Of a DNA stretch of 24,474 nucleotides, positions 645 through 24,238 are shown piece by piece (position 1 is the first letter of the stretch; the number at the start of each line of letters is the position of its first letter). The translations under genes and the position numbers were made by a program. Where the stretch lies: NCBI GenBank assembly GCA_038896955.1, contig JAWAXJ010000001.1:1-24474 (forward strand), written 5' to 3'. The stretch comes from Desulfurococcaceae archaeon (lineage in GTDB: Archaea > Thermoproteota > Thermoprotei_A > Sulfolobales > Desulfurococcaceae). Below the pieces are notes generated by a model, which ran no database searches, was not told the origin of the DNA, and saw only the letters and a list, made by a program, of their open reading frames with translations.

Positions 645-670
645 TTATATACCACAACTACATAGTTACA
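645..670 (+). promoter_or_regulatory. TATA box plus conserved downstream element, copy 1
   Basis: TTATATACCACAACTACATAGTTACA upstream of the RHH gene at 684; 24/26 identical to 1949-1974. Confidence 0.75.
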
Positions 671-683
671 TAATGGTGATATT

Positions 684-848
684 ATGTCCTGGAAGGATAG
701 AAAGACAAGGATAGATGTCTACATCGATAAAAAGCTAGCAGAGAGGCTTTTCAACTACGTTAAAAAGACTAACCCAAGACTGTTTGGCGGGTTGACGAAG
801 GCTGTCGAGGAGGCGATAGAAGAGTTTCTAGAGAAACGTGGAGCATGA
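684..848 (+). CDS. Ribbon-helix-helix (CopG/Arc-like) regulator, 54 aa; not in the ORF track
   Basis: MSWKDRKTRIDVYIDKKLAERLFNYVKKTNPRLFGGLTKAVEEAIEEFLEKRGA: alternating beta strand (RIDVYID) then two amphipathic helices. SD GGTGA at 675-679. Confidence 0.8.
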   Translation: MSWKDRKTRIDVYIDKKLAERLFNYVKKTNPRLFGGLTKAVEEAIEEFLEKRGA

Positions 849-1077: not shown

Positions 1078-1932
1078 ATGGAGCCACAGTTTGAGGTAGC
1101 GGTAAGCTGGGATGGATTCAAATGGTTTGTTAGCAGAGATGAGAGGCTCAAGCATAGCGTTGAGGTTTTAAGCAAAGGTGAGCTGAGCGTTCTAAGGGCT
1201 TTGAGGAGTATTGCCTCAAAAGATATGATATTCTGTGATGTAGGAGCTTTTGTCGGTTATTACACGTGCAGGTTGGCGCCATATGTCAGAGAGGTACACT
1301 CATTCGAGCCAAACCCGGTTTCGAGAACCATCCTCTTGAAGAATGTTGAGCTAAACGGTTTGGGAAATGTAAAGGTGCATCCGTATGCTTTAGGTGATAA
1401 GAGTGAGGTTAAAAAGCTGTATTTGATGGCGTCAGGCTCAACATTGCTTGAGGGCTACGGCGGTCTGGAGGTTGTTGATGTTGAGGTTAAGCCGATGGAT
1501 GATGTGGTGGATTGGGCTGATCTCGTGAAGATAGATGTCGAGGGGTATGAGTGGAATGTTGTGAGGGGGATGATGAACATCATAAGGAGGTGTAAGCCGG
1601 TCATAGTAATTGAGCATCACGACTTCAGGCATTACAGAATTGCAACATATGACTTGATCAAGAATACACTCAAAGCTGAGGGCTACATCCCAGTATACAT
1701 AACTGAGCCTCACAGGCTATACTGGCACTCCTCGAAGCCTATAAGCGAAATCAGGGATATCATCGTGGATCACTGGATAAATTACTGCATAATGAATATC
1801 AAGGAGGGTAAGCCTTGGTATTATGGGTTGCCTTGCACTTGGTGGTGGGGGATGAACCTGGTAGATTTCATACATGAGCTCCCAGAGCATGTAGATGCGG
1901 AGTATGAGTGGGTAAAGCGCTTGGATCCGTGA
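1078..1932 (+). CDS. SAM-dependent methyltransferase, FkbM family
   Basis: Motif I CDVGAFVGYYT, VHSFEPNP, and FkbM signature LVKIDVEGYE; Trp/Tyr-rich C-terminal extension. Confidence 0.9.
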   Translation: MEPQFEVAVSWDGFKWFVSRDERLKHSVEVLSKGELSVLRALRSIASKDMIFCDVGAFVGYYTCRLAPYVREVHSFEPNPVSRTILLKNVELNGLGNVKVHPYALGDKSEVKKLYLMASGSTLLEGYGGLEVVDVEVKPMDDVVDWADLVKIDVEGYEWNVVRGMMNIIRRCKPVIVIEHHDFRHYRIATYDLIKNTLKAEGYIPVYITEPHRLYWHSSKPISEIRDIIVDHWINYCIMNIKEGKPWYYGLPCTWWWGMNLVDFIHELPEHVDAEYEWVKRLDP

Positions 1933-1948
1933 GGTGTGGGGGAAAAGC

Positions 1949-1974
1949 TTATATACCACAATTACACAGTTACA
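1949..1974 (+). promoter_or_regulatory. TATA box plus conserved downstream element, copy 2
   Basis: TTATATACCACAATTACACAGTTACA preceded by BRE-like GAAAAGC; upstream of the 1993 gene. Confidence 0.75.
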
Positions 1975-1992
1975 ATATGACAGGTGGAGGCT

Positions 1993-2421
1993 ATGAAAGT
2001 AACGCTGCTAGAGGTATTCAAAGACTTTGAGGTGACGGTTAAAGGCTACGGTCAGTTTGGCAGATACGTGCAGTTGTTTAAGCTTGTTCCGATCCAGAAT
2101 GCAAATACCGTTACGGTCGAGGACTTAGAGAATTACGTGAAGAGTCTGCAGCAGAGGTATCCAGATAAAAACTTTTACTTGGATAAGAGGGTTTTAAACG
2201 GTAAAGTATTCTATATAGTTACTAAGAAGAAGAGGATGCCGAATGGAAGGCAGGTGTATGATCGCATACCGGTGTACTTCGATTTAGAGAATCAGAAGGT
2301 GTATGTGCCTAAAAGCTATGTGAAGAAGCAGAGACGGCTTACAAACTACATTCTCATGCGTGTACTCGGTGCTCTAGGAGTGGCTAGACAGTATTATGTT
2401 AGAACAGAGGGTAGGAGGTGA
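1993..2421 (+). CDS. Basic hypothetical viral protein (142 aa), possibly nucleic-acid binding
   Basis: ATG 1993 after AGGTGGAGG; Lys/Arg/Tyr-rich; genome-typical codon use. Family not recognised. Confidence 0.8.
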   Translation: MKVTLLEVFKDFEVTVKGYGQFGRYVQLFKLVPIQNANTVTVEDLENYVKSLQQRYPDKNFYLDKRVLNGKVFYIVTKKKRMPNGRQVYDRIPVYFDLENQKVYVPKSYVKKQRRLTNYILMRVLGALGVARQYYVRTEGRR

Positions 2422-2431
2422 TGGAGTAGTT

Positions 2432-2524
2432 ATGGAGAGATTACATCCACTATGGAGGTATTACATATATAGGCTAATCTGTGAGGGTGTTGGTAAGCGT
2501 AGATATGTGAAGCGTAAACACTAG
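2432..2524 (+). CDS. Possible 30-aa basic peptide (MERLHPLWRYYIYRLICEGVGKRRYVKRKH)
   Basis: Fills the gap between convergent genes exactly; GGAGGTGATGGAG upstream. Short, so could be chance. Confidence 0.35.
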   Translation: MERLHPLWRYYIYRLICEGVGKRRYVKRKH

Positions 2525-2832
2525 GGTAACCCGTACCTAGTCTTTATTCCTGACAGCACTCTATGCCTCAGTGCTTCAAGCTTGAATGCCTTCATAAAGT
2601 CGTTCACGATTTTTTCTACAGCATCTTTCAGTTCAGCTTCAGTTAGATCTGTATGTGTAGCTCTGAGTACTGTTTCGCAAACCTCATATAACCCCGCTCT
2701 TATCCGATCCTCGCTATCTGCTCCTTCGAGGTATACTGAGAAGAGGTAATTTATCGTCGTAGCAATATCAATCCTGGTTGCAGGATCGGTTATAGGTGCG
2801 ATAAGGTTTTTGATAAGCATACTTAAGCTCAT
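2521..2832 (-). CDS. Alpha-helical hypothetical protein (103 aa)
   Basis: ATG 2832 after GGAGGATGAGG; last gene of a three-gene minus operon divergent from the MCP. Confidence 0.75.
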   Translation of the reverse strand: MSLSMLIKNLIAPITDPATRIDIATTINYLFSVYLEGADSEDRIRAGLYEVCETVLRATHTDLTEAELKDAVEKIVNDFMKAFKLEALRHRVLSGIKTRYGLP

Positions 2833-2836
2833 ATCC

Positions 2837-2986
2837 TCATCCTCCACCCTTCTCAAACTCCTCTATAAGCTTTACTAAAGCCATCACTAATAAATCCTCC
2901 TTTCTTACCCCCCTCATCTTCTCAATCTTATCTAGAGCAATGAAGATCCTTTCAGGTACGATTATTTCAAGCCTACGAGCTGACAT
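2837..2986 (-). CDS. Ribbon-helix-helix protein, 49 aa; not in the ORF track
   Basis: MSARRLEIIVPERIFIALDKIEKMRGVRKEDLLVMALVKLIEEFEKGGG; SD GGGTGA; strand LEIIVP plus two helices; fills the operon gap. Confidence 0.75.
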   Translation of the reverse strand: MSARRLEIIVPERIFIALDKIEKMRGVRKEDLLVMALVKLIEEFEKGGG

Positions 2987-3407
2987 GCTTCTTCACCCAT
3001 TCACGGAATATCTTCTCTGTTATTATACCTGCTTCTCTCTCAAATTTTTTAACCCTGGTAACCTCTTTTAAGACTCTTCTTCTAGCCTTCACAAGCTTGT
3101 TAAGCTCGAAAGACTTCAATGCGAAGTAGTTTATCGTTTCGTCTGTCGCCTCAACCTCTATTATCGCTCTATACCCCTTCTCCAGTGGTTCAACCTTGAC
3201 CTTTGACACTACATCGATATTCCTCTCACGTAGAAATCTTACTCTGAAATTCCAGTAGCTTAATGTTGACTCGAGCATCGTACCTATGATCCATGCTAGC
3301 CCCTTCATCGCTCTTACAAAATCCTCTTTGGTAGGTGTTGACGCCTCCTCATCAACCTTATCCTTGCGTATAACGGCCCCCCTTTGCTTAGAGGATTGTA
3401 TAACCAT
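2973..3407 (-). CDS. Hypothetical protein (144 aa), charged
   Basis: ATG 3407 after SD GGAGGGA; divergent from the MCP. Confidence 0.75.
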   Translation of the reverse strand: MVIQSSKQRGAVIRKDKVDEEASTPTKEDFVRAMKGLAWIIGTMLESTLSYWNFRVRFLRERNIDVVSKVKVEPLEKGYRAIIEVEATDETINYFALKSFELNKLVKARRRVLKEVTRVKKFEREAGIITEKIFREWVKKHVSS

Positions 3408-3465
3408 TTCCCTCCTATGTTTATATGACACCGCCTATAAATAGATTTTACGGTGGTGTCGAGAT

Positions 3466-3840
3466 ATGCCTATCTACAAGACTGGAGCACAGATGTTTAA
3501 GAAGTACTCGGCTAAGTTTAACCCGACTGTGGTTGGTACAAGGTTCACCGATGTTAGGGAGGTAGCCCTTGATAGGGCTCAAGAGGGTTTAAATGTTATC
3601 GGCACGGCTAGAGACCTGATAAGACCGATACTAGATGAGTACGGTATAGGGGGCGGTTTAAGGGCTACGTATCTAGCCTTCGGTACCGCCCTCTTGAGGC
3701 ATGCTGTCAGGCAGAAGGGTGACGTAGCCAAGAAGGTAGCTAACGGTCTCAAGAGCTACTTCGTAACAGCATACGGTCTTGATCCAGCTGTATGCGATGA
3801 GATAATACAGGTGATAACTGGCTGGGTGATGCCGTACTAA
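3466..3840 (+). CDS. Major capsid protein, SIRV2-type four-helix-bundle fold
   Basis: Aligns by eye over its whole length with SIRV2 MCP recalled from memory: AKFNPTVVGTRFTDV ~ AKFNAFSNPTVASTILSNV; PILDEYGIGGGLRATYLAFG ~ AVLTQYGITGPNRAIYQGFG; NGLKSYFVTAYGLDPAVCDEIIQVITG ~ NGLKGYYISAFNANPQVLDAVVNIITG. CTATAAATA box at 3435-3443. Confidence 0.9.
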   Translation: MPIYKTGAQMFKKYSAKFNPTVVGTRFTDVREVALDRAQEGLNVIGTARDLIRPILDEYGIGGGLRATYLAFGTALLRHAVRQKGDVAKKVANGLKSYFVTAYGLDPAVCDEIIQVITGWVMPY

Positions 3841-4909: not shown

Positions 4910-6223
4910 ATGAGCTACGAGAACGTACTAGACAAGAGGAAGTATCATGTGAAGGTTGCTAGCGAAGACGGGGTGTACATCACATGGCTTAGGCTGCTTG
5001 ATGTTGCCCCACTCTTCAGTGAGTGGGCGTGGCTTCAAATACCTTTATTCGACCTCACACAGCTTGGTATGGTTATACTATTTGATATCGCACCATTCGA
5101 GTTTCAGCCGTATGCTCTCGACTACGAGTACACAACCCCATCGATAGATGAGGTTATGCAGGGTATATGGGTGAAGTTCACACCAGTAGACTATACTTTA
5201 AAGTATGCTTGGACTTCAAGCGTAGATAGATATACATATGTAAACTACAAGCCTGAGTATGCTGAATCTATAGATAGGACAAGGTTGAAGAAAGCCTACT
5301 ATGGTTTAACACGGTACGGTGAAAGCTACTATGACCCACCCGTGCAGAGGGAGTTTGTGCGTGCGACACTATATAGGTTGAGCCTTATGAGAACTGCTAG
5401 GGTAAGCTACTTAGCTGATATCGAGAGGGTTCATGAAACGCTTGATATACATGAAGTTGTAGGTGTGACACTGGTGAATAGGTTAGCTCTACTCTCATCT
5501 GCACAGATCAATGCGTTTGTACTAGGATTATCGCCTCTGGGTAGAGGAAGGCTTGCTGAAGATAAGGATGGCTTAACATCAATACCTGTAGTAGACTACA
5601 TGGGCAATATCTATGACGTAAAGTTTAGAACATTAGAGCATCTACAGAGTGGATTCATACTTGGCCTGACGTTTCTAGGATACGGGTTCCTAATGCCTAG
5701 AGAAACGATATATGTATACCCTGAGGGGAAAAGGAACCCGCCGTTCATAGATACGATAGTGTATAAGACTCGTGGGGTAATAAATAGACTGAGCCTAACA
5801 GCGTGGGCCTACTCAAACTATAATAAGCCTGAGGAGATGGTTGATTATCATAAGAGCGAGAAGACGAGCCAATACGACCTGCTTCAGGCATATAGGAGGC
5901 ATATTGAGGCGTGGGTTGAGGCTCAGATAACGCCCGAGGAGGCTAACGCGGTAAAGGTTAGACAGTATCAGAATGCGGTTCTACAGGCAATATCTTTCAG
6001 AGCTAAGAGGCATAGATGGGGATTCCAGGGATGGGGGGCGATGACCGAATATCAGTTTAGGGATTGGTGGATGCGTTACTGGACTGCACAAGGTTTAAAT
6101 AACGATGTGTTGAGTAAGTTGTATGAGGGGATGGCGTTATGGCTGAGCAGGTTAAGAGAAGTCAAGCTCAGAGTAGGGGAGCAGGTCAAGAAGACGCGGC
6201 TCAGGCTAGCCAGGTTAGCATAA
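4910..6223 (+). CDS. Putative minor virion structural protein (437 aa)
   Basis: Aromatic-rich; YYGLTRYGESYYDP motif; internal duplication AFVLGLSPLGRGRL / GFILGLTFLGYGFL; lies in the MCP operon. Function inferred from context. Confidence 0.7.
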   Translation: MSYENVLDKRKYHVKVASEDGVYITWLRLLDVAPLFSEWAWLQIPLFDLTQLGMVILFDIAPFEFQPYALDYEYTTPSIDEVMQGIWVKFTPVDYTLKYAWTSSVDRYTYVNYKPEYAESIDRTRLKKAYYGLTRYGESYYDPPVQREFVRATLYRLSLMRTARVSYLADIERVHETLDIHEVVGVTLVNRLALLSSAQINAFVLGLSPLGRGRLAEDKDGLTSIPVVDYMGNIYDVKFRTLEHLQSGFILGLTFLGYGFLMPRETIYVYPEGKRNPPFIDTIVYKTRGVINRLSLTAWAYSNYNKPEEMVDYHKSEKTSQYDLLQAYRRHIEAWVEAQITPEEANAVKVRQYQNAVLQAISFRAKRHRWGFQGWGAMTEYQFRDWWMRYWTAQGLNNDVLSKLYEGMALWLSRLREVKLRVGEQVKKTRLRLARLA

Positions 6224-6453
6224 CGGCTCCAGAGGTACCTGAGGAGGTGAGGACTGAATTAACATCGCTTATGCAAGATCTACTGCTTAAGACACATGAG
6301 CTTTCATTCGAGTATTCAACACTGGATTGTGAGAGCATCCAGGCATGCTCATTAGCTCAGAAATGTAGAGAGATCTTCAAGATTGTTAAGAGGCTTAACC
6401 AGGTTGTTAAAGGTATATCTGCACCTCAGAGGAAACCCTCATATACGACATAA
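6139..6453 (+). CDS. Hypothetical protein with helical hairpin and three Cys (104 aa)
   Basis: SD GAGGGG 8 nt before ATG 6139; overlaps the upstream gene by 85 nt; low-complexity N-terminus, helical C-terminal half. Confidence 0.6.
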   Translation: MAEQVKRSQAQSRGAGQEDAAQASQVSITAPEVPEEVRTELTSLMQDLLLKTHELSFEYSTLDCESIQACSLAQKCREIFKIVKRLNQVVKGISAPQRKPSYTT

Positions 6454-6469
6454 AGTATACTAGTTTCTT

Positions 6470-6745
6470 GTGGAGCCGTCATCGTTCACCCTACCTCCAC
6501 TCTCGATTACGCTAGATGGTTGTATAGTTGATGTGCTAGAGGTTACTAGATCAACACTTATCTCTGGTGAAACATGGCTCCATGTAGCTGTTAGAATAAA
6601 CTATATGGGTGTTAGGAGTAGGGTTTTTACGATAGATGCTAGAAGCCAGAGAGAGTTTATCGATAAGCTTAGAGTTGAGATAGCGAAAGTGAAATTCATA
6701 TATTACGCATATGGTATAGAATTGTTGAGGAGGCTGATAGCTTGA
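6470..6745 (+). CDS. Small beta-sheet/helix hypothetical protein (91 aa)
   Basis: GTG start; TTGA overlap couples it to the 1533-aa gene. Confidence 0.75.
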   Translation: MEPSSFTLPPLSITLDGCIVDVLEVTRSTLISGETWLHVAVRINYMGVRSRVFTIDARSQREFIDKLRVEIAKVKFIYYAYGIELLRRLIA

Positions 6746-9700
6746 GCCAGGAGCTACCTGAGATAAGACCTGAAGAGATAGAGCAAATGGCTAAGTTGTT
6801 AGCTGATGTATTCGTCCAATCTTACAGCCAGACACAGCCTGTCGAACTTACATGCACATACCAGCTAGTTGAAGAGGAGAAAATATGCTTAGATGCTATA
6901 GCGTCTTTCCAGGCAGGGGTACTAGATCCATTAGGTCAGCTTAGGGATTGGTTTGTAAGCGTGTTTAACTCAGTAGCATCTTGGGTAGCTTCAGCGATAA
7001 CAGCCTTCATAGAGAGAGCTGTTATACCAAGTATAAACGCTATATCTGACTTTCTAAATAGGGTGATTCTACCAGCTATAGAATCGGTTATAGGTAGCAT
7101 ATCAAGGGCAATATCTGATACGGTATCAGCTACCGGCAAAATACTGTTAGAATCACTTGGAGCGTTAGGTAAAACAGTAACGGATGCATTGAGTAGCTCA
7201 GTTAAAACACTATCAAACCTATTAGCATCGGTAGGCAAAACGATTCTCGACTCAATATCTGCAGCTTTCAAATCTATAGTAGACCTCCTCTCAGGTATAG
7301 GGAAAACAATAATGGATACCCTATCAGCGGCCGTAAAGTCTCTTTCAGATGCTTTCAAATCTATAGGTAAAACGATACTTGACAGTCTTGCTGGCTTCGC
7401 CAATAACATAATAGATGCTTTCAAATCTATAGGTAAAACGGTAATGGATGCATTATCTGGTGCTGCTAAATCGATAATTGACTACTTTAGCGTAGCTTTC
7501 AAATCTATAGTAGACCTCCTCTCAGGGATATTGAAAGGCATCATGGATGCTTTACACGGTGTTGCTGAAGTCTTTATCGATGCGTTAACAGTGATGGGTA
7601 GATCTATTCTAGATGCGTTATCGGCTGGTGTAAAGGCTTTATCAGACTTCTTCTCGAATATAGCGAAGTCGATCATGGATGGCTTTTCCAAGATAGATAA
7701 AGGATTGGTGGATCTATGGAACTTTATGGTTGGGGCATTCAAAGATATTGCAGGCATAATTTCAGTAGGCTTCTCAGAGATAGGCAGGGCTTTCATGGGT
7801 TTTGTAAACGGTGTGATTGAAGCTGGTGCATGGATAACATCGGCGATTAAACGGATTGGAGAATACATCTGGATAGGTCTGCCAGAATCGATCAGGCTAG
7901 GTTTGGAGCATCTATTCGAATTAATACAGAAAATAGTAAGGTATATGACTGAAGGTGTTGAACCTGGATGGGAGTTTACATCATCACCACCTCTCGTACT
8001 TGGTGTGAGATTGATACTACCGAAGTCTGAGTTCCCTGTATTCTTCTGTACGCCTTCAAGTTTATTCGCACCACTGGTTAATGCTCTTGTCGGGGTGTAT
8101 GAGGCATATATACAGCCAGCTCTTACAAGTATAACCCAGACAATCTGGAGTGGTATACAAACTCTACAGGAATTCTTCGCTAACGCTATACGAGCAGTCT
8201 GGGGGTCTGCGCAGAAGGTGTTTAGCGGGCTAGCAGAGTTTTTAGGTAGCTCTATCACAGGCTTTCTAGGCGGTCTATGGGAGGTGTTCTCAAGGTTATC
8301 ATCAATTCTGAGAGGTGTCTTTGAAGCTATTCTTGGAGGTCTACACGAACAGGTGGGTAAGTATATGGGTAGACAAGCAGCTCCGTTACTAACAGAGGTT
8401 GCGAAGTCTATAGGCATAGGTACACCTGAATACTTGAAAGCTGAAAATATCGAAACACAAATAATGAACATGTATACAATGGCATGGGTTTTCCTCTCGT
8501 CACCACTCTGGGCATCGATACCGGTTCGACTAGCGGCGCATGGAATGTATCAGGCTGGACAAGCGTTATACAACATACAGGAGCCGATCCACCTGAGCCT
8601 GAGACCATTCGGCATAGGTATAGATATACCTATTTCTATAACAAAGGCAATCGGGGCGTCGCTATCGCATTTCTCACGGGAAGTGAAGGAGTGGGTTGAC
8701 ATAGTTGGTAGCGCAATGGTTTACGGTATGGGCATCTGGGTTAGCCAGCCCATAAGCAGGGTGCTAAGCTATAGCCTCAGAAACGTGTTACCGGTTGAGC
8801 TACCGTCATTGGATCTGGTAATGGAGGCGGCTAGGAGGTCGATGCCGAGCGCGGCATACGAAGATATGCTTAAGCTTTCGAAATACTACCTATCATTGTA
8901 CGGATACTCTGATCTGGTGATAGACCTGCTTTTCGCATCAGTCGATAGGTATCATGTAGTGGTGAAGGATAGGTTCGGGGTGGAGAGGAAGATACCGCTA
9001 TCGCTGATCTACGAGTTACCGTCAGCTTCGGATGTTGCAACGATGATGGTGAGAGATATCTTCGCATCCATAGCTGACTTCTACACGCTGTACAAGGCAA
9101 GAGGTATGGCTGAGGATGTTGGGGCGCTCTACTACTTACTGAGATTCAGGTATCCATCACCTGAGCGTCTATGGCAGTTCACGACTAGAGGTATAAGCGG
9201 TCTACTATGGGTGACCATGACAGATGCGGAGAGAGCTGATATAGAGAAGGAAGCAAAGGACATAGGTGCTTACACACCTGTAGCGCCAAGCATGTTAAAC
9301 TTTAAAGTTCAAGACTTAATGAGGGCTTTGAAAACATACATGAAGTGGCATGACTACGCAAAGTTCAGCTGGCTTCAAGGCTTCACATCGGACAACATGA
9401 TCTACATCGACACGTTGGCTGATATACCTACAAAGATAGATCAGCGGTGGATGATCAAGTGGGGTATATACGAGCAGCTCAGCGCTAAAGGAGTGACATA
9501 CACTTCACCTGTAAACGAGTTTATAACTAGATACGTCGAGTTGACCCCGACATCAAGGATAACACTAGATTTGACAAACTTCTGTAGGACGCTGCAAGCT
9601 ACAGGTCTACACCCAGCATGGGTACCGGCTACAGCTGTAGCTGAAGCTATGAACGCATTATCAGAGGAACGTACGTTGCTTAGAACAGGTTTCGTAAACA

Positions 9701-11681: not shown

Positions 11682-12754
11682 CTCGTCTAATATACTACTT
11701 CTATCCGGTGCTGCGTAGGGTTAGCTTCAGTGTAATAGCAAAGAAGCATTGCGAACAGCTTAGAAAGTACTTCAGGCTCTATGAGATGGATGAGCTGGCT
11801 CTGCCATACATAGAAGCCGCTACGAAGCCGCTGCTTATACTTCAACCCTACTTCTACCCGCTTCAAAAGTATGAGTCGAGATTGGCTAGGAAACGGCATT
11901 ACTTCAACGGTTTGATAGGTATCGATGTTGCTGATTCAACACATATAACACCATATGCGGTTAGTCTAACGGAGTATGCGGATGCTTTAATAGTCCCATC
12001 GAATTTTGCGAAGAGGGTTTATGAGGGTTCAGGCGTCAAGAAACCGGTACATGTGGTTCCGCATGGCGTGGACGAGTCTTGGATAGATGCCCCCCCGTCA
12101 AAGCCATCCAAGTTCAAGCATATATCTGATCTGAAGGAGAAGCTTGGCTGTAAGCTACTCCTAAGCTTCATAGTTCATAGCGAATACAGGAAGGGTTTGG
12201 ATATTTTGCTTGAAATTTATAGGAGGCTGTATGGCGAGAGGAGGGACGTAGCATTAGTTATTAAAACTATGCATGGAGCTGGCTACATATCGAAGCCAAT
12301 AGACTATAAGATGGATGGATTAGACCTCTATCTAGAGTGGAGGGTGAGCTCAGAGTGGTTTAGTGAGGGTGAGCTCATGGAGCTCATAGATATATGCGAT
12401 GTATTCCTGCTCACGAGTAGGGGCGGGGGGTTCGAGCACCCAGCTCTCCAAGCCCTCTCAAGGGGTCTGCCAGTCATAGCTGCTAAGGGAGGAGCATGGG
12501 ATGATTATCTACCAGAGTGGAGCCTTGTAGAGTCTGTCAGGAGTGGAAGGGTTTTGGAGAACAACCCAATACACGATGGTTACGGTGTGGAGATGGTTTT
12601 GGAGAAGGCTGTAGATAAGACAATAGATGTACTCGATAATCTTGAGGAGTATAAGGTTAGGGTGAAAGACTATGTTGATACACATGTGAGAAATGAACTG
12701 ACATGGGGTGCAATAGGTAGAAGTCTTAGAGATATAGTCGAGGAATATATGTAA
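11678..12754 (+). CDS. Glycosyltransferase, GT4-like, with variant nucleotide-binding motif
   Basis: IVPSNF, VHVVPHGVD, RKGLDIL, TSRGGGFEHPALQALSRGLPVI; ATGA overlap with the upstream stop. Confidence 0.9.
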   Translation: MTRLIYYFYPVLRRVSFSVIAKKHCEQLRKYFRLYEMDELALPYIEAATKPLLILQPYFYPLQKYESRLARKRHYFNGLIGIDVADSTHITPYAVSLTEYADALIVPSNFAKRVYEGSGVKKPVHVVPHGVDESWIDAPPSKPSKFKHISDLKEKLGCKLLLSFIVHSEYRKGLDILLEIYRRLYGERRDVALVIKTMHGAGYISKPIDYKMDGLDLYLEWRVSSEWFSEGELMELIDICDVFLLTSRGGGFEHPALQALSRGLPVIAAKGGAWDDYLPEWSLVESVRSGRVLENNPIHDGYGVEMVLEKAVDKTIDVLDNLEEYKVRVKDYVDTHVRNELTWGAIGRSLRDIVEEYM

Positions 12755-12792
12755 CGATAAGCTTTTTAGAGTGTACGCTAATAGATGTTCAT

Positions 12793-13248
12793 ATGTTTAG
12801 ACGTACGAAGGATAGGATCAGGTTAGAAGGGAAACTTACACTTATACTGATAAGATGTGGGAAGGAAGCATATAGGAAAACATATACTAACATGATCGTC
12901 GATGCTGGAATAGCACATATAGCTGGTCTTATAGGTGGTGTTGCAGCAACCCCATTCACATATATAGCGGTAGGGACTGGTACTACACCACCCTCACCGT
13001 CAGACACTGCTTTACAGAATGAAGTGATGAGGGTGCCGGCTACTATAACTATGTTAACTACAACAAGTCCCAACGATACGGTACACTATGATGCTGTATT
13101 CAATATAACAGCATCATACAGTTTAGCTGAGGCCGGTATATTCGACGCACCATCCGGTGGTACTATGCTTGCAAGGAGAACATACACCGCTATAAGTGTA
13201 GGCGGCGGGGATGTACTCAAAGTAGTATGGGATATAAAGGTGGGGTGA
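12793..13248 (+). CDS. Phage tail-collar/fibre-base-like protein (DUF3751/PF12571-like)
   Basis: NMIVDAG.AHIAGLIGG...YIAVGTGTTPPSPSDTALQNEVMR...NDTV...LAEAGIFDAPSGGTMLAR matches the recalled tail-collar pattern (T.aG..A...AvG.G...taL.nEv.R...E.GlFd..g.liA). Confidence 0.75.
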   Translation: MFRRTKDRIRLEGKLTLILIRCGKEAYRKTYTNMIVDAGIAHIAGLIGGVAATPFTYIAVGTGTTPPSPSDTALQNEVMRVPATITMLTTTSPNDTVHYDAVFNITASYSLAEAGIFDAPSGGTMLARRTYTAISVGGGDVLKVVWDIKVG

Positions 13249-21828: not shown

Positions 21829-22290
21829 ATGGTTGACTTCAAGAGGTTCTCCATCTACGTGGCGAACAGGAAGGTGAGGAAGGGGTGGGACTACATTATC
21901 CTACCCGATGGAAAGAGGGTTTCAGTTGAGCCGGGCAAGTACCTGAAGCTGCTCAGCGAGAAGCCTTTAAAGTTCGGCTTCGAAGACCTGACTGAGGAAA
22001 TCGGTGAAAAACCCGACTGGGACTTCGACGAGCCTATATGCGAGGTTGTTGAGGAGACTGGAATCGTAAGCAAGAAAGTGAGACTTAAATGCACCTATGG
22101 AGCCGGCTATGAGAACCACCTCTACTTCGACAATGTTCTCATCTACAAGTTTACTCCTGGAGGATATACGGTAGAGATCTCCTTCACCTACACTGACTGG
22201 AAGCCGGTTATTATGGGAGTTGTCGGCGGTGTCGCCGCTACAGCAGCAATTATTACAGCAGCAATATATGCGAGAAGGAGAAGGGCATAA
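21829..22290 (+). CDS. C-terminally membrane-anchored protein (153 aa)
   Basis: SD GGGGTGA; soluble beta-rich region, then VIMGVVGGVAATAAIITAAIYA and RRRRA stop-transfer tail. Confidence 0.8.
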   Translation: MVDFKRFSIYVANRKVRKGWDYIILPDGKRVSVEPGKYLKLLSEKPLKFGFEDLTEEIGEKPDWDFDEPICEVVEETGIVSKKVRLKCTYGAGYENHLYFDNVLIYKFTPGGYTVEISFTYTDWKPVIMGVVGGVAATAAIITAAIYARRRRA

Positions 22291-22516: not shown

Positions 22517-22954
22517 CTATAAATGTTCAGTATATGTTACAGATGCACCGCATACAGGGCATACACGTCTTACACGTTTGAAGCATCCGCTGGTAGCGGT
22601 CTCATACTCTACAATCCACTCGTCGTGTCTACACCGGGATATTGGTATAGGCTTCAATGCTAGAGTAGACATCACTATTTCTACAGCCCTTCTTCTTCTC
22701 CTTGAACGCCATTTGCTACGCTTAAGCATGGCGAGGTATGTGAGCGCTAGTTTACCATCCATCTGATGCTCCCAGAGGTGGTCAAGTAGCGCGGTTCTAT
22801 CGTTGAGTCTTGCAGAGCATGCTGGACACGTGTACGGTTCATATGCTTGTATATGCGCGGTTCTATAGTGTCTCACCAGATTCGATACATGCCTATATTT
22901 CACACCGCATACAGGGCATACATATATGTTGCTACGCATCACCGAGTATCTCAT
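22517..22954 (-). CDS. Tandem C2H2 zinc-finger protein with an extra C-terminal zinc site (145 aa)
   Basis: CPVC...LVRHYRTAH, CPAC...LLDHLWEH, basic RSRRRRR, then CRH...GC...CPVCG. Confidence 0.85.
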   Translation of the reverse strand: MRYSVMRSNIYVCPVCGVKYRHVSNLVRHYRTAHIQAYEPYTCPACSARLNDRTALLDHLWEHQMDGKLALTYLAMLKRSKWRSRRRRRAVEIVMSTLALKPIPISRCRHDEWIVEYETATSGCFKRVRRVCPVCGASVTYTEHL

Positions 22955-23160
22955 TCTTCCACCACCTTGTAGACCTTCACCATAAAGCCGTACTCTCTAG
23001 CTAGGCCTGCCAGCCTGTATGCTGCTGATCTACTTTCTGTTACGTATACACTCTTCTGCACACGTGTGACAGGCAGGTTCATCTTCTTGAGTCTGTAGTA
23101 GAATGTTCTTGGCATGCGGCCGGGTTTAGCTCCTGGTTTATCCATTACTACAAGGTACAT
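22951..23160 (-). CDS. Cas2/VapD-like small ferredoxin-fold protein (69 aa)
   Basis: MYLVVMDK...RTFYYRLKK...RVQKSVY matches the Cas2 pattern (YLV.YD...R....L.....RVQ.SVF); SD GGGGA; minus-strand T6 run just upstream. Confidence 0.65.
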   Translation of the reverse strand: MYLVVMDKPGAKPGRMPRTFYYRLKKMNLPVTRVQKSVYVTESRSAAYRLAGLAREYGFMVKVYKVVEE

Positions 23161-23194
23161 TCTCTATCCCCTGTAAAAAAGAGGCTGAGAGAGT

Positions 23195-23671
23195 TTAACC
23201 TTCGAATGTACGTTGTAGTTTGCGGCATTTTGGTGGTACTGGTAGGCTGTGCTCGTCTTCAGACGAGGAAGCCTTGCAGGCGGTTAGGAAGCTGTAGACG
23301 TAGTAGGCGTCGAGGGCGAGGTGGTATAGCCAGTCAGATGGTACCTTCTCTAGCTTCACTATATTCCTGGCAAGAAGTATATAGTCAGCTAGACACACAT
23401 TGGTGTATTGGAGTGCTGATGCAGTTTTAGCTGTATCTGACCCTCCTGTAGTAGTAACAAGGACTGTGCAGAAGGCTCGCCCCCCTGTAAACCTCACTCT
23501 TGTTACATATTTTCGTATCGGGCAGGCTGGACACGGCTTGAGAACAGTATACCTTATATTACTATACCTCCTATACACAACCCTGGCGTGGTTTTTCTCA
23601 CTCTTTATCTTTTCCACGATCTCTCTCGCGGAAAAGGTGTCAATACTCAAATATGTACCAAAGTATACCAT
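23195..23671 (-). CDS. Hypothetical protein with CPAC motif (158 aa)
   Basis: SD GGAGGAG; starts right after the upstream stop. Confidence 0.65.
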   Translation of the reverse strand: MVYFGTYLSIDTFSAREIVEKIKSEKNHARVVYRRYSNIRYTVLKPCPACPIRKYVTRVRFTGGRAFCTVLVTTTGGSDTAKTASALQYTNVCLADYILLARNIVKLEKVPSDWLYHLALDAYYVYSFLTACKASSSEDEHSLPVPPKCRKLQRTFEG

Positions 23672-23672
23672 A

Positions 23673-24065
23673 CTATATCTCCTCCATCATCCTCATATAC
23701 TTTTCATACAGACTTTGATCAAGACTAGAGACACCACCTAGGTAGTCGAGAAATACTGGTGTCTCAATAACGAACGTAACTGTGGACAAATTACCCCTGT
23801 TACTTACACGTACCAGTGTAGCTTTAGTACCTTTTAAAACGGTCACTAGCCACTTCTTGTGTGTCCCCCCTCCAACGAATATCGGAGGGGTAATGGGCTG
23901 GGGTTCAAAAAACCACCTACTAGATGCTCCAGTCCTGCTCCCTACATGCTCTTCGTACACGACAAGAACCCCAGCACTTGAAGAAGCCTGACCCATGCTG
24001 GCTGGGGTAGCATGGGCATCGGCCTGGGTTCGCTTAACGGTTTGGGTTGGGTTCTGGCTTGACAT
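23673..24065 (-). CDS. Hypothetical protein (130 aa), low-complexity N-terminus and beta-rich core
   Basis: ATG 24065 placed by the BRE/TATA GAAAGATTTAAATA at 24107-24094; core YEEHVGSRTG...LVRVSNRGN. Confidence 0.7.
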   Translation of the reverse strand: MSSQNPTQTVKRTQADAHATPASMGQASSSAGVLVVYEEHVGSRTGASSRWFFEPQPITPPIFVGGGTHKKWLVTVLKGTKATLVRVSNRGNLSTVTFVIETPVFLDYLGGVSSLDQSLYEKYMRMMEEI

Positions 24066-24093
24066 GGCCTGTGTACACGTGTGCATCGAGGAA

Positions 24094-24107
24094 TATTTAA
24101 ATCTTTC
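24094..24107 (-). promoter_or_regulatory. BRE-TATA promoter of the minus-strand cluster
   Basis: GAAAG followed by ATTTAAATA, about 28 nt upstream of ATG 24065. Confidence 0.65.
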
Positions 24108-24185
24108 CCATATGTGCAGCCCATGAGGATAAACCATCAAGTCAATATCCCGACGTGGAATCCCGGTTCAGCTTTAACATGCACG

Positions 24186-24220: not shown

Positions 24221-24238
24221 GAAGAAAGCCTTATATAA
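24221..24238 (+). promoter_or_regulatory. BRE-TATA promoter of the HTH gene
   Basis: GAAGAAAGCC followed by TTATATAA, upstream of SD GGGGAG (24259-24264) and ATG 24273. Confidence 0.65.

Follow-up and report, generated by a model that had tools for sequence, protein, structure and literature searches.

The 69-aa Cas2-like protein encoded near one end of the archaeal virus genome described here is, by comparison of sequence profiles, a distant homolog of Cas2, a minimal protein of the Cas2 superfamily with a ferredoxin-like fold. It shares its missing C-terminal segment with chromosomal relatives that are not cas genes, and we favor a role on nucleic acids that is independent of Cas1, with a probability of roughly 40%, over a role as a decoy of the host spacer acquisition machinery. 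Both the gene and the decoy hypothesis are found in Duan et al. (ISME Commun 2024, PMC10848311), and the finding itself is therefore already known. A rediscovered annotation and its hypothesis add little alone; the possible value of our analysis lies in the correction brought by family context, which argues against accepting the published decoy idea as it stands. Beyond the text of that paper are the recognition of a separate Cas2-like family, its chromosomal members, which are unlinked to Cas1 and share the truncation, and their partner genes.

The viral contig and its host

The window, that is, the whole stretch of 24,474 nucleotides under analysis, is the entire contig C1 of a MAG of 1.37 Mb and 62.8% completeness. 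Its genes include those for a capsid protein of the SIRV2 type (Sulf_coat_C, 2.7e-19), two glycosyltransferases of family GT1, an FkbM methyltransferase and a repeat protein of 1533 aa, and such a content is typical of a filamentous archaeal virus. The virus is Chiyouvirus, in full Bathyarchaeia bifangarchaeales chiyouvirus, described by Duan et al. (PMC10848311). Three adjoining entries in the supplementary gene table of that study are Chiyouvirus_38 (24601-25038), annotated as 'zinc finger protein', Chiyouvirus_39 (25035-25244), annotated as 'CRISPR-associated endonuclease Cas2' with an HHblits value of 99.54, and Chiyouvirus_40 (25279-25755). In the window, a 438-nt zinc-finger gene, the 210-nt Cas2-like gene and a 477-nt ORF reproduce the lengths and spacing of these three entries at an offset of 2084; the 69-aa Cas2-like ORF is Chiyouvirus_39, the same gene, already published.

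Genes on the left-hand side of the window fit the published coordinates at an offset of 2050. The offset shifts from 2050 to 2084 across the ORF at 21829-22290, which is a single intact 153-aa reading frame with a C-terminal hydrophobic helix in the window and two short genes, Chiyouvirus_36 and Chiyouvirus_37, in the published table. Judged from the coordinates only, this implies that a 34-nt difference splits the gene in the published Chiyouvirus sequence.

The Cas2-like gene is the third in a compact block of four genes on the minus strand, near the end of the genome. The features of this region are listed below in the direction of reading:

24231-24238, minus strand: TTATATAA, a TATA-like box, seen by eye only, some 95 nt upstream of the four-gene block
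23673-24137, minus strand: ORFan of 154 aa (Chiyouvirus_41), first gene of the block; no Pfam or PHROG match, Atlas scores <= 0.77
23195-23671, minus strand: ORFan of 158 aa (Chiyouvirus_40), directly upstream of the Cas2-like gene; no Pfam or PHROG match and no usable Atlas match
23161-23194, minus strand: intergenic spacer of 34 nt that contains a T6 run and a Shine-Dalgarno-like GGGGA, read from the sequence, of putative function
22951-23160, minus strand: truncated Cas2-like protein of 69 aa (Chiyouvirus_39), identified by its ORF, an AF2 model, hhalign and the published gene table
22517-22954, minus strand: C2H2 zinc-finger protein of 145 aa (Chiyouvirus_38); Pfam zf-C2H2 1.5e-9, zf-Di19 1.6e-9

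An earlier sequence-only reading of this DNA had reported a 69-aa ORF with the motifs YLVVMD and RVQKSVY at 22951-23160. Re-reading the minus strand gives the same 69-codon frame, with an ATG start, the N-terminal sequence MYLVVMD and an internal RVQKSVY. Several features establish it as a genuine gene rather than a chance frame: a Shine-Dalgarno-like GGGGA is found 8 nt ahead of its ATG, its TGA stop and the ATG of the zinc-finger gene overlap by 4 nt (ATGA at 22951-22954), and homologs occur among the cluster representatives discussed below. For the 154-aa ORFan, the ATG at 24137 gives a length in agreement with the published gene table.

Two spacers of one CRISPR array, found in the 'Candidatus Bathyarchaeota' MAG JAGTQC, match the window exactly:

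661-690, plus strand: protospacer core (within window positions 657-696), identical over 30 nt to the spacer at 6688-6717 of JAGTQC010000007.1 (locus L043), in an array of 20 repeats
3535-3569, plus strand: second protospacer, inside the capsid gene, identical over 35 nt to the spacer at L043:6150-6184 of the same array

Through these two spacers the virus-host link is confirmed independently of PMC10848311. The array (5858-7158, with 20 copies of CTTTCAATTCTCTTTTTAGATGCATG) reaches the contig end. No cas genes lie in the 5.8 kb that precede it on JAGTQC010000007.1 and no Cas1 or Cas2 match was obtained in the whole JAGTQC assembly, so that the adaptation module facing the virus is either unassembled or absent.

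The full Chiyouvirus genome is reported to carry two mini-CRISPR arrays of four repeats each, one of them with the host repeat (PMC10848311). In the window we detected no CRISPR-like array, no copy of the host repeat even at 3 mismatches and none of the MAG repeats; one published mini-array may sit in the stretch of about 2 kb by which the window falls short on its left side. Within the MAG assembly, Cas1 is matched only on another contig, C39, and the earlier remark that the window holds neither cas1 nor an array is accurate. The sole array-like feature in the window, at 7264-7510, consists of four copies of GCTTTCAAATCTATAG spaced 87, 66 and 78 nt, which fall within the 1533-aa gene, in the part that codes for hendecad repeats.

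The Chiyouvirus contig is probably mis-binned in its MAG, since none of the 52 spacers of the MAG matches the window, no repeats are shared, C1 correlates less well with the remainder of the MAG in tetranucleotide composition (0.72, most large contigs reaching 0.92-0.95) and the class of the MAG (351 genomes, many of them complete at 2-3 Mb) differs from that of the spacer-linked host JAGTQC (17 genomes). On contig C12 of the MAG (genome G000), two arrays of a 24-nt repeat, CTTTCAGTCTTTTTTGATTGCTTC, lie in opposite orientation at 1563-3413 and 11832-12801; their spacers are unusually long, at 48-54 nt.

Relationship to Cas2 and the missing C-terminal segment

An AlphaFold2 model computed with the first family alignment (mean pLDDT 93.3, pTM 0.80) has the order β1-α1-β2-β3-α2-β4, with strands at residues 2-7, 32-35, 38-41 and 60-65 and helices at 18-27 and 44-56. 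The ferredoxin-like fold anticipated from the sequence is thus what the model predicts. The protein has a net charge of +9. Searched exhaustively with phmmer, 1.84 billion cluster representatives returned 18 other proteins at E <= 1e-3, and a search with the family profile returned 31 relatives. The first family alignment shows no variation at D7, F20, Y21, Q35, S37, Y39 or L53; D7 and S37 are invariant over 28 divergent family members.

Curated models see little of this protein. Pfam CRISPR_Cas2 scores 12.9 bits, against a cut-off of 23.8 (E 0.13), over residues 31-48 only; PADLOC Cas2 gives E 0.03, and NCBIfam gives no match. At the level of the family, 7 of the 18 members weakly match PF09827 and no other family recurs. 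The sole match of the family profile in the PDB is the Sulfolobus Cas2 protein SSO8090 (3exc), and two genuine Cas2 genes surfaced as weak matches when this profile was searched in six frames. Comparison by hhalign with 19 Cas2 proteins, all from genomes in the class to which the MAG belongs, yields a probability of 85.2% (E 6.1e-6) for the first alignment (A1) and 93.5% (E 2.3e-7, 65 columns) for the broader 28-member alignment (A8). Identity to canonical Cas2 is about 18% in the profile alignment, where D7 falls on the Cas2 aspartate and Q35, S37 and Y39 fall on the invariant Q, S and F of the 19 Cas2 proteins. These alignments bear out the Cas2 relationship proposed earlier, with the strand-1 Asp and the Q-S-aromatic motif of strand 2 retained.

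Structural comparison is less specific. Foldseek, which uses 3Di states plus residues, places mostly Cas2 chains on top (E 5e-3, TM 0.5-0.6), with VapD of H. influenzae (6zn8) at ranks 9-10 (TM 0.54-0.62), behind several Cas2 chains. In the structure-only search by VIA-align, MESD/Boca, MzrA, NikR-C, ACT and PII domains are best (Z 6-7.7) and no Cas2 chain is found among the top 50; the BFVD viral library gave nothing meaningful. Since geometry by itself does not point to Cas2, the assignment relies on sequence profiles and not on the fold.

The PaaX-type domain (PF20803), put forward earlier as an alternative assignment, has to be abandoned. With six PaaX_M domains, hhalign gives the family 1.6%, against 93.5% with Cas2, and no PaaX match by Pfam was found among the 18 members at E <= 1. 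Furthermore, PaaX combines an N-terminal wHTH with a C-terminal PaaX_C domain, whereas the viral protein, of 69 aa, stands alone; a search for fused family forms of 222-2000 aa found none, which is weak evidence. PaaX_M is carried by one family in the MAG's class, and likewise by the Sulfolobus acidocaldarius control.

In structures of the Cas1-Cas2 complex, the C-terminal segment of Cas2 contacts Cas1. The viral protein ends 4 residues after strand 4 and reaches column 74 of the 99 Cas2 columns in the profile alignment. It is without the C-terminal 20-25 residues of canonical Cas2, and the conserved W..R.VIG block in that continuation is absent. Only 35 residues separate its Q.S motif from the C terminus, compared with 56-69 (median 64) among 15 canonical Cas2 proteins, and the segment is present in 19 of 19 canonical Cas2 proteins compared. 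That the protein stops before the Cas2 tail had been correctly seen. The same distance has a median of 43 residues in metagenomic members of the family and 40.5 in chromosomal members. As chromosomal members are short as well, the truncation is a trait of the family, and not a viral innovation or an adaptation to act as a decoy.

The wider family and its chromosomal neighborhoods

The family comprises about 45 clusters. A quick maximum-likelihood tree, which has only 78 columns and calls for caution, splits 15 canonical Cas2 proteins from 47 family members (SH-aLRT 99), and the viral protein belongs to this distinct family and not to canonical Cas2. In the same 78-column tree, it falls in a clade of 31 proteins ('VVMD', support 99) nested among chromosomal branches. 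This clade has lost the N-terminal extension of the chromosomal members and carries, behind its first strand, a conserved loop of the form G-x-MPR-x-FY; the closest 'VVMD' relatives include proteins on contigs of 21, 23, 67 and 136 kb.

Chromosomal members are 88-152 aa long, with an N-terminal extension of the MGRKKL type and a first strand of the form VVYDF. Their matches to Cas2 models (Pfam 1.5e-4, TIGR01573 4.7e-5, PADLOC 1.9e-6) fall just short of the cut-offs. In the member from genome G708 (L062:3398-3700), the N-terminal 56 residues match positions 131-186 of NF011156 (E 2.6e-5), a model equivalent to PRK14562 and named 'haloacid dehalogenase superfamily protein'. This hints that the N-terminal extension may be a module shared with another archaeal protein family.

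The family is present in 8 genomes, besides the window's own, in a sample of 400 from the phylum, and in 22 of 120 genomes of one class, mostly as one copy per genome. All genomes of five families have it (4/4, 4/4, 3/3, 2/2 and 2/2), as does the single genome of a further family, f63 (1/1), and it is found in 0 of 60 genomes of two other families. In some Thermoproteota families, the gene is single-copy and lineage-conserved. Apart from this contig, none of the 351 genomes in the class of the MAG contains the family, nor do any of the 17 genomes in the class of the spacer-linked host. Viral collections were unproductive: IMG/VR, scanned with the protein and two sub-alignments, yielded no relatives, and neither DNA nor protein comparison with the phage GenBank collection produced a match. 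A metagenome scan with the viral protein found nothing but an identical copy, on a contig of 1.8 kb, and a word-indexed protein search with the single protein as query returned only the protein itself.

Chromosomal members of the family are not cas genes. In five genomes, the family gene lies on a contig other than that of the canonical Cas1-Cas2 pair. Two genomes (G586 and G698) carry it with no Cas1 or Cas2, and a third (G581) has a weak, partial Cas1-like match only. Genes for an HTH-CBS protein, DUF2070, ZPR1 and assorted toxin-antitoxin genes are found as neighbors, and no cas family is present among the recurrent neighbors of the chromosomal members.

One neighbor deserves attention. In 11 of 25 cellular loci, a gene for a conserved protein of about 130 aa lies within 1.5 kb of the family gene, in co-directional or divergent orientation; at the other 14 it is missing within that distance. 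The partner is predicted to consist of a small β-β-α domain, a disordered linker and a winged helix in its C-terminal half, the latter based on sub-threshold matches to HTH_33 and Penicillinase_R and on an AF2 model with pLDDT of about 90 in this half, for which Foldseek retrieves PadR, MecI, Fur and MarR. Two further loci have a 99-aa HTH-like gene 12 nt after the family gene. A conserved chromosomal pair of a Cas2-like protein of about 100 aa and a winged-helix protein of about 130 aa is seen at loci L063-L065 and L075-L095 in Thermoproteota genomes G618, G638, G658 and others; both proteins stay below the curated cut-offs of Pfam and NCBIfam, the Cas2-like one just under those of Cas2 and the partner with weak winged-helix matches only, and the pair adjoins the DUF2070, ZPR1 and HTH-CBS genes. 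The window encodes no homolog of the cellular wHTH partner, to which the viral zinc-finger protein bears no relation, so that pairing with a DNA binder is an analogy between virus and cell and not a homology.

Possible roles and known systems

We consider it most likely, at the probability given above, that the protein is a Cas1-independent nucleic-acid binder or cleaver of the Cas2/VapD type, acting with a DNA-binding partner in a regulatory or toxin-antitoxin-like function, and reused by the virus. Such a protein would be small, probably dimeric and metal-dependent. Its action would probably be tied to the DNA-binding partner, the wHTH protein in cells and the zinc-finger protein in the virus, and the two genes would form a regulatory or toxin-antitoxin-like module. 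The virus may deploy this module early in infection, for host takeover or regulation, in which case the protein would not be a structural poison of the host Cas1-Cas2 integrase. The nuclease activity of Cas2 is weak and variable, and the invariant Asp is therefore no proof of catalysis. We propose only tentatively a more ambitious version, in which the viral protein and its approximately 45 relatives make up an undescribed, minimal branch of the Cas2 superfamily that lacks the C-terminal segment, is independent of Cas1, forms a two-component module with a small DNA-binding partner (winged helix in Thermoproteota chromosomes, C2H2 zinc finger in the virus) and was exapted by the virus for host takeover and not as an anti-CRISPR. 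Against the favored reading, CRISPR targeting of the virus and the published mini-array with a host repeat raise the prior for a CRISPR-related role.

The main competitor is the anti-adaptation decoy, which we regard as possible although doubtful: a mini-Cas2 would form heterodimers with the host Cas2 or replace it, and the resulting complexes would fail to bridge two Cas1 dimers, blocking acquisition. Homology to Cas2 with the core retained, loss of the segment with W..R.VIG, the two exact spacers against the virus and the position of the gene in a block of small genes near the genome end are all consistent with this mechanism, the same as proposed in PMC10848311. Precedents in the literature are a viral Cas4 inhibiting adaptation and AcrVA5 binding Cas2. 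Of the mimic with a lost tail imagined from the sequence, the Cas2 homology and the missing tail stand; the reading of this loss as a means to poison Cas2 is weakened, as the truncation is common to chromosomal members and hence not a viral adaptation. Moreover, the family occurs in genomes without cas1 or cas2 and is not linked to these genes, and identity to canonical Cas2 of about 18% on a long tree branch is unlike a recently captured mimic. The spacer-linked MAG offers no Cas1 or Cas2 to poison, although its array ends at a contig edge. Finally, very few Acrs derive from Cas proteins, according to a 2024 review. A viral Cas2 decoy, if true, would be notable for this very reason, few anti-CRISPRs being known to derive from Cas proteins. 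The family evidence lowers its likelihood and points to a conserved Cas2-like protein kept by cells without Cas1. The family thus bears on the old question of Cas2-type roles apart from integrase scaffolding, and the Cas2-like protein and its winged-helix neighbor are a small and tractable pair.

We think it improbable that the protein is a generic small ferredoxin-fold or ACT-like protein for ligand binding or scaffolding, with a Cas2 resemblance that is functionally meaningless. The structure-only ranking, headed by MESD/Boca, MzrA, NikR-C, ACT and PII with Cas2 missing from the top 50, speaks for it. However, every profile signal, in Pfam, NCBIfam, PADLOC, the PDB and hhalign, leads to Cas2 only, and the match to Cas2 is motif for motif, Asp included.

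Least probable is an adaptation helper, in which the viral protein would replace Cas2, recruit host Cas1 and load spacers into the viral mini-arrays: the two mini-arrays of the full genome, one with the host repeat (PMC10848311), and the retained Cas2 core would suit such a role, but the protein lacks the C-terminal segment found in all 19 canonical Cas2 compared, family members are Cas1-independent, and the window has neither array nor host repeat.

What is added here to the account of Chiyouvirus_39 in the text of PMC10848311 is the absence of the C-terminal segment, the broader family with its Cas1-independent members on chromosomes, and the partner genes. The nearest viral parallel is the Cas4 protein encoded by archaeal rudiviruses. 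It too is a homolog of a Cas adaptation-module protein in a virus of the Ligamenvirales, and it is proposed to reduce spacer acquisition, as reported for SIRV2 Cas4. It differs from the viral Cas2-like protein in protein family and fold.

Like the viral protein, VapD of the VapXD system and the solo Cas2 homologs of mobile elements belong to the Cas2 superfamily and stand alone, away from CRISPR loci. Makarova et al. (2012, PMC3506569) discuss solo Cas2 homologs on mobile elements as possible toxin-like RNases. In contrast to VapXD, no VapX-like antitoxin is recognized beside the viral gene, which has a 158-aa ORFan upstream and a zinc-finger gene downstream, and the sequence models that match the viral family are of the Cas2 type.

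From canonical Cas2 (PF09827/TIGR01573, 3exc), the viral protein differs by a loop between strand 1 and helix 1 that is 3 residues longer and has its own G-x-MPR-x-FY motif, by scores below every curated cut-off, by the lack of the C-terminal W..R.VIG segment and by the lack of a cas1 neighbor. Both have the β-α-β-β-α-β core, an Asp that closes strand 1, a strand 2 of the form R-[IV]-Q-x-S-[VA]-[FY] and a basic charge.
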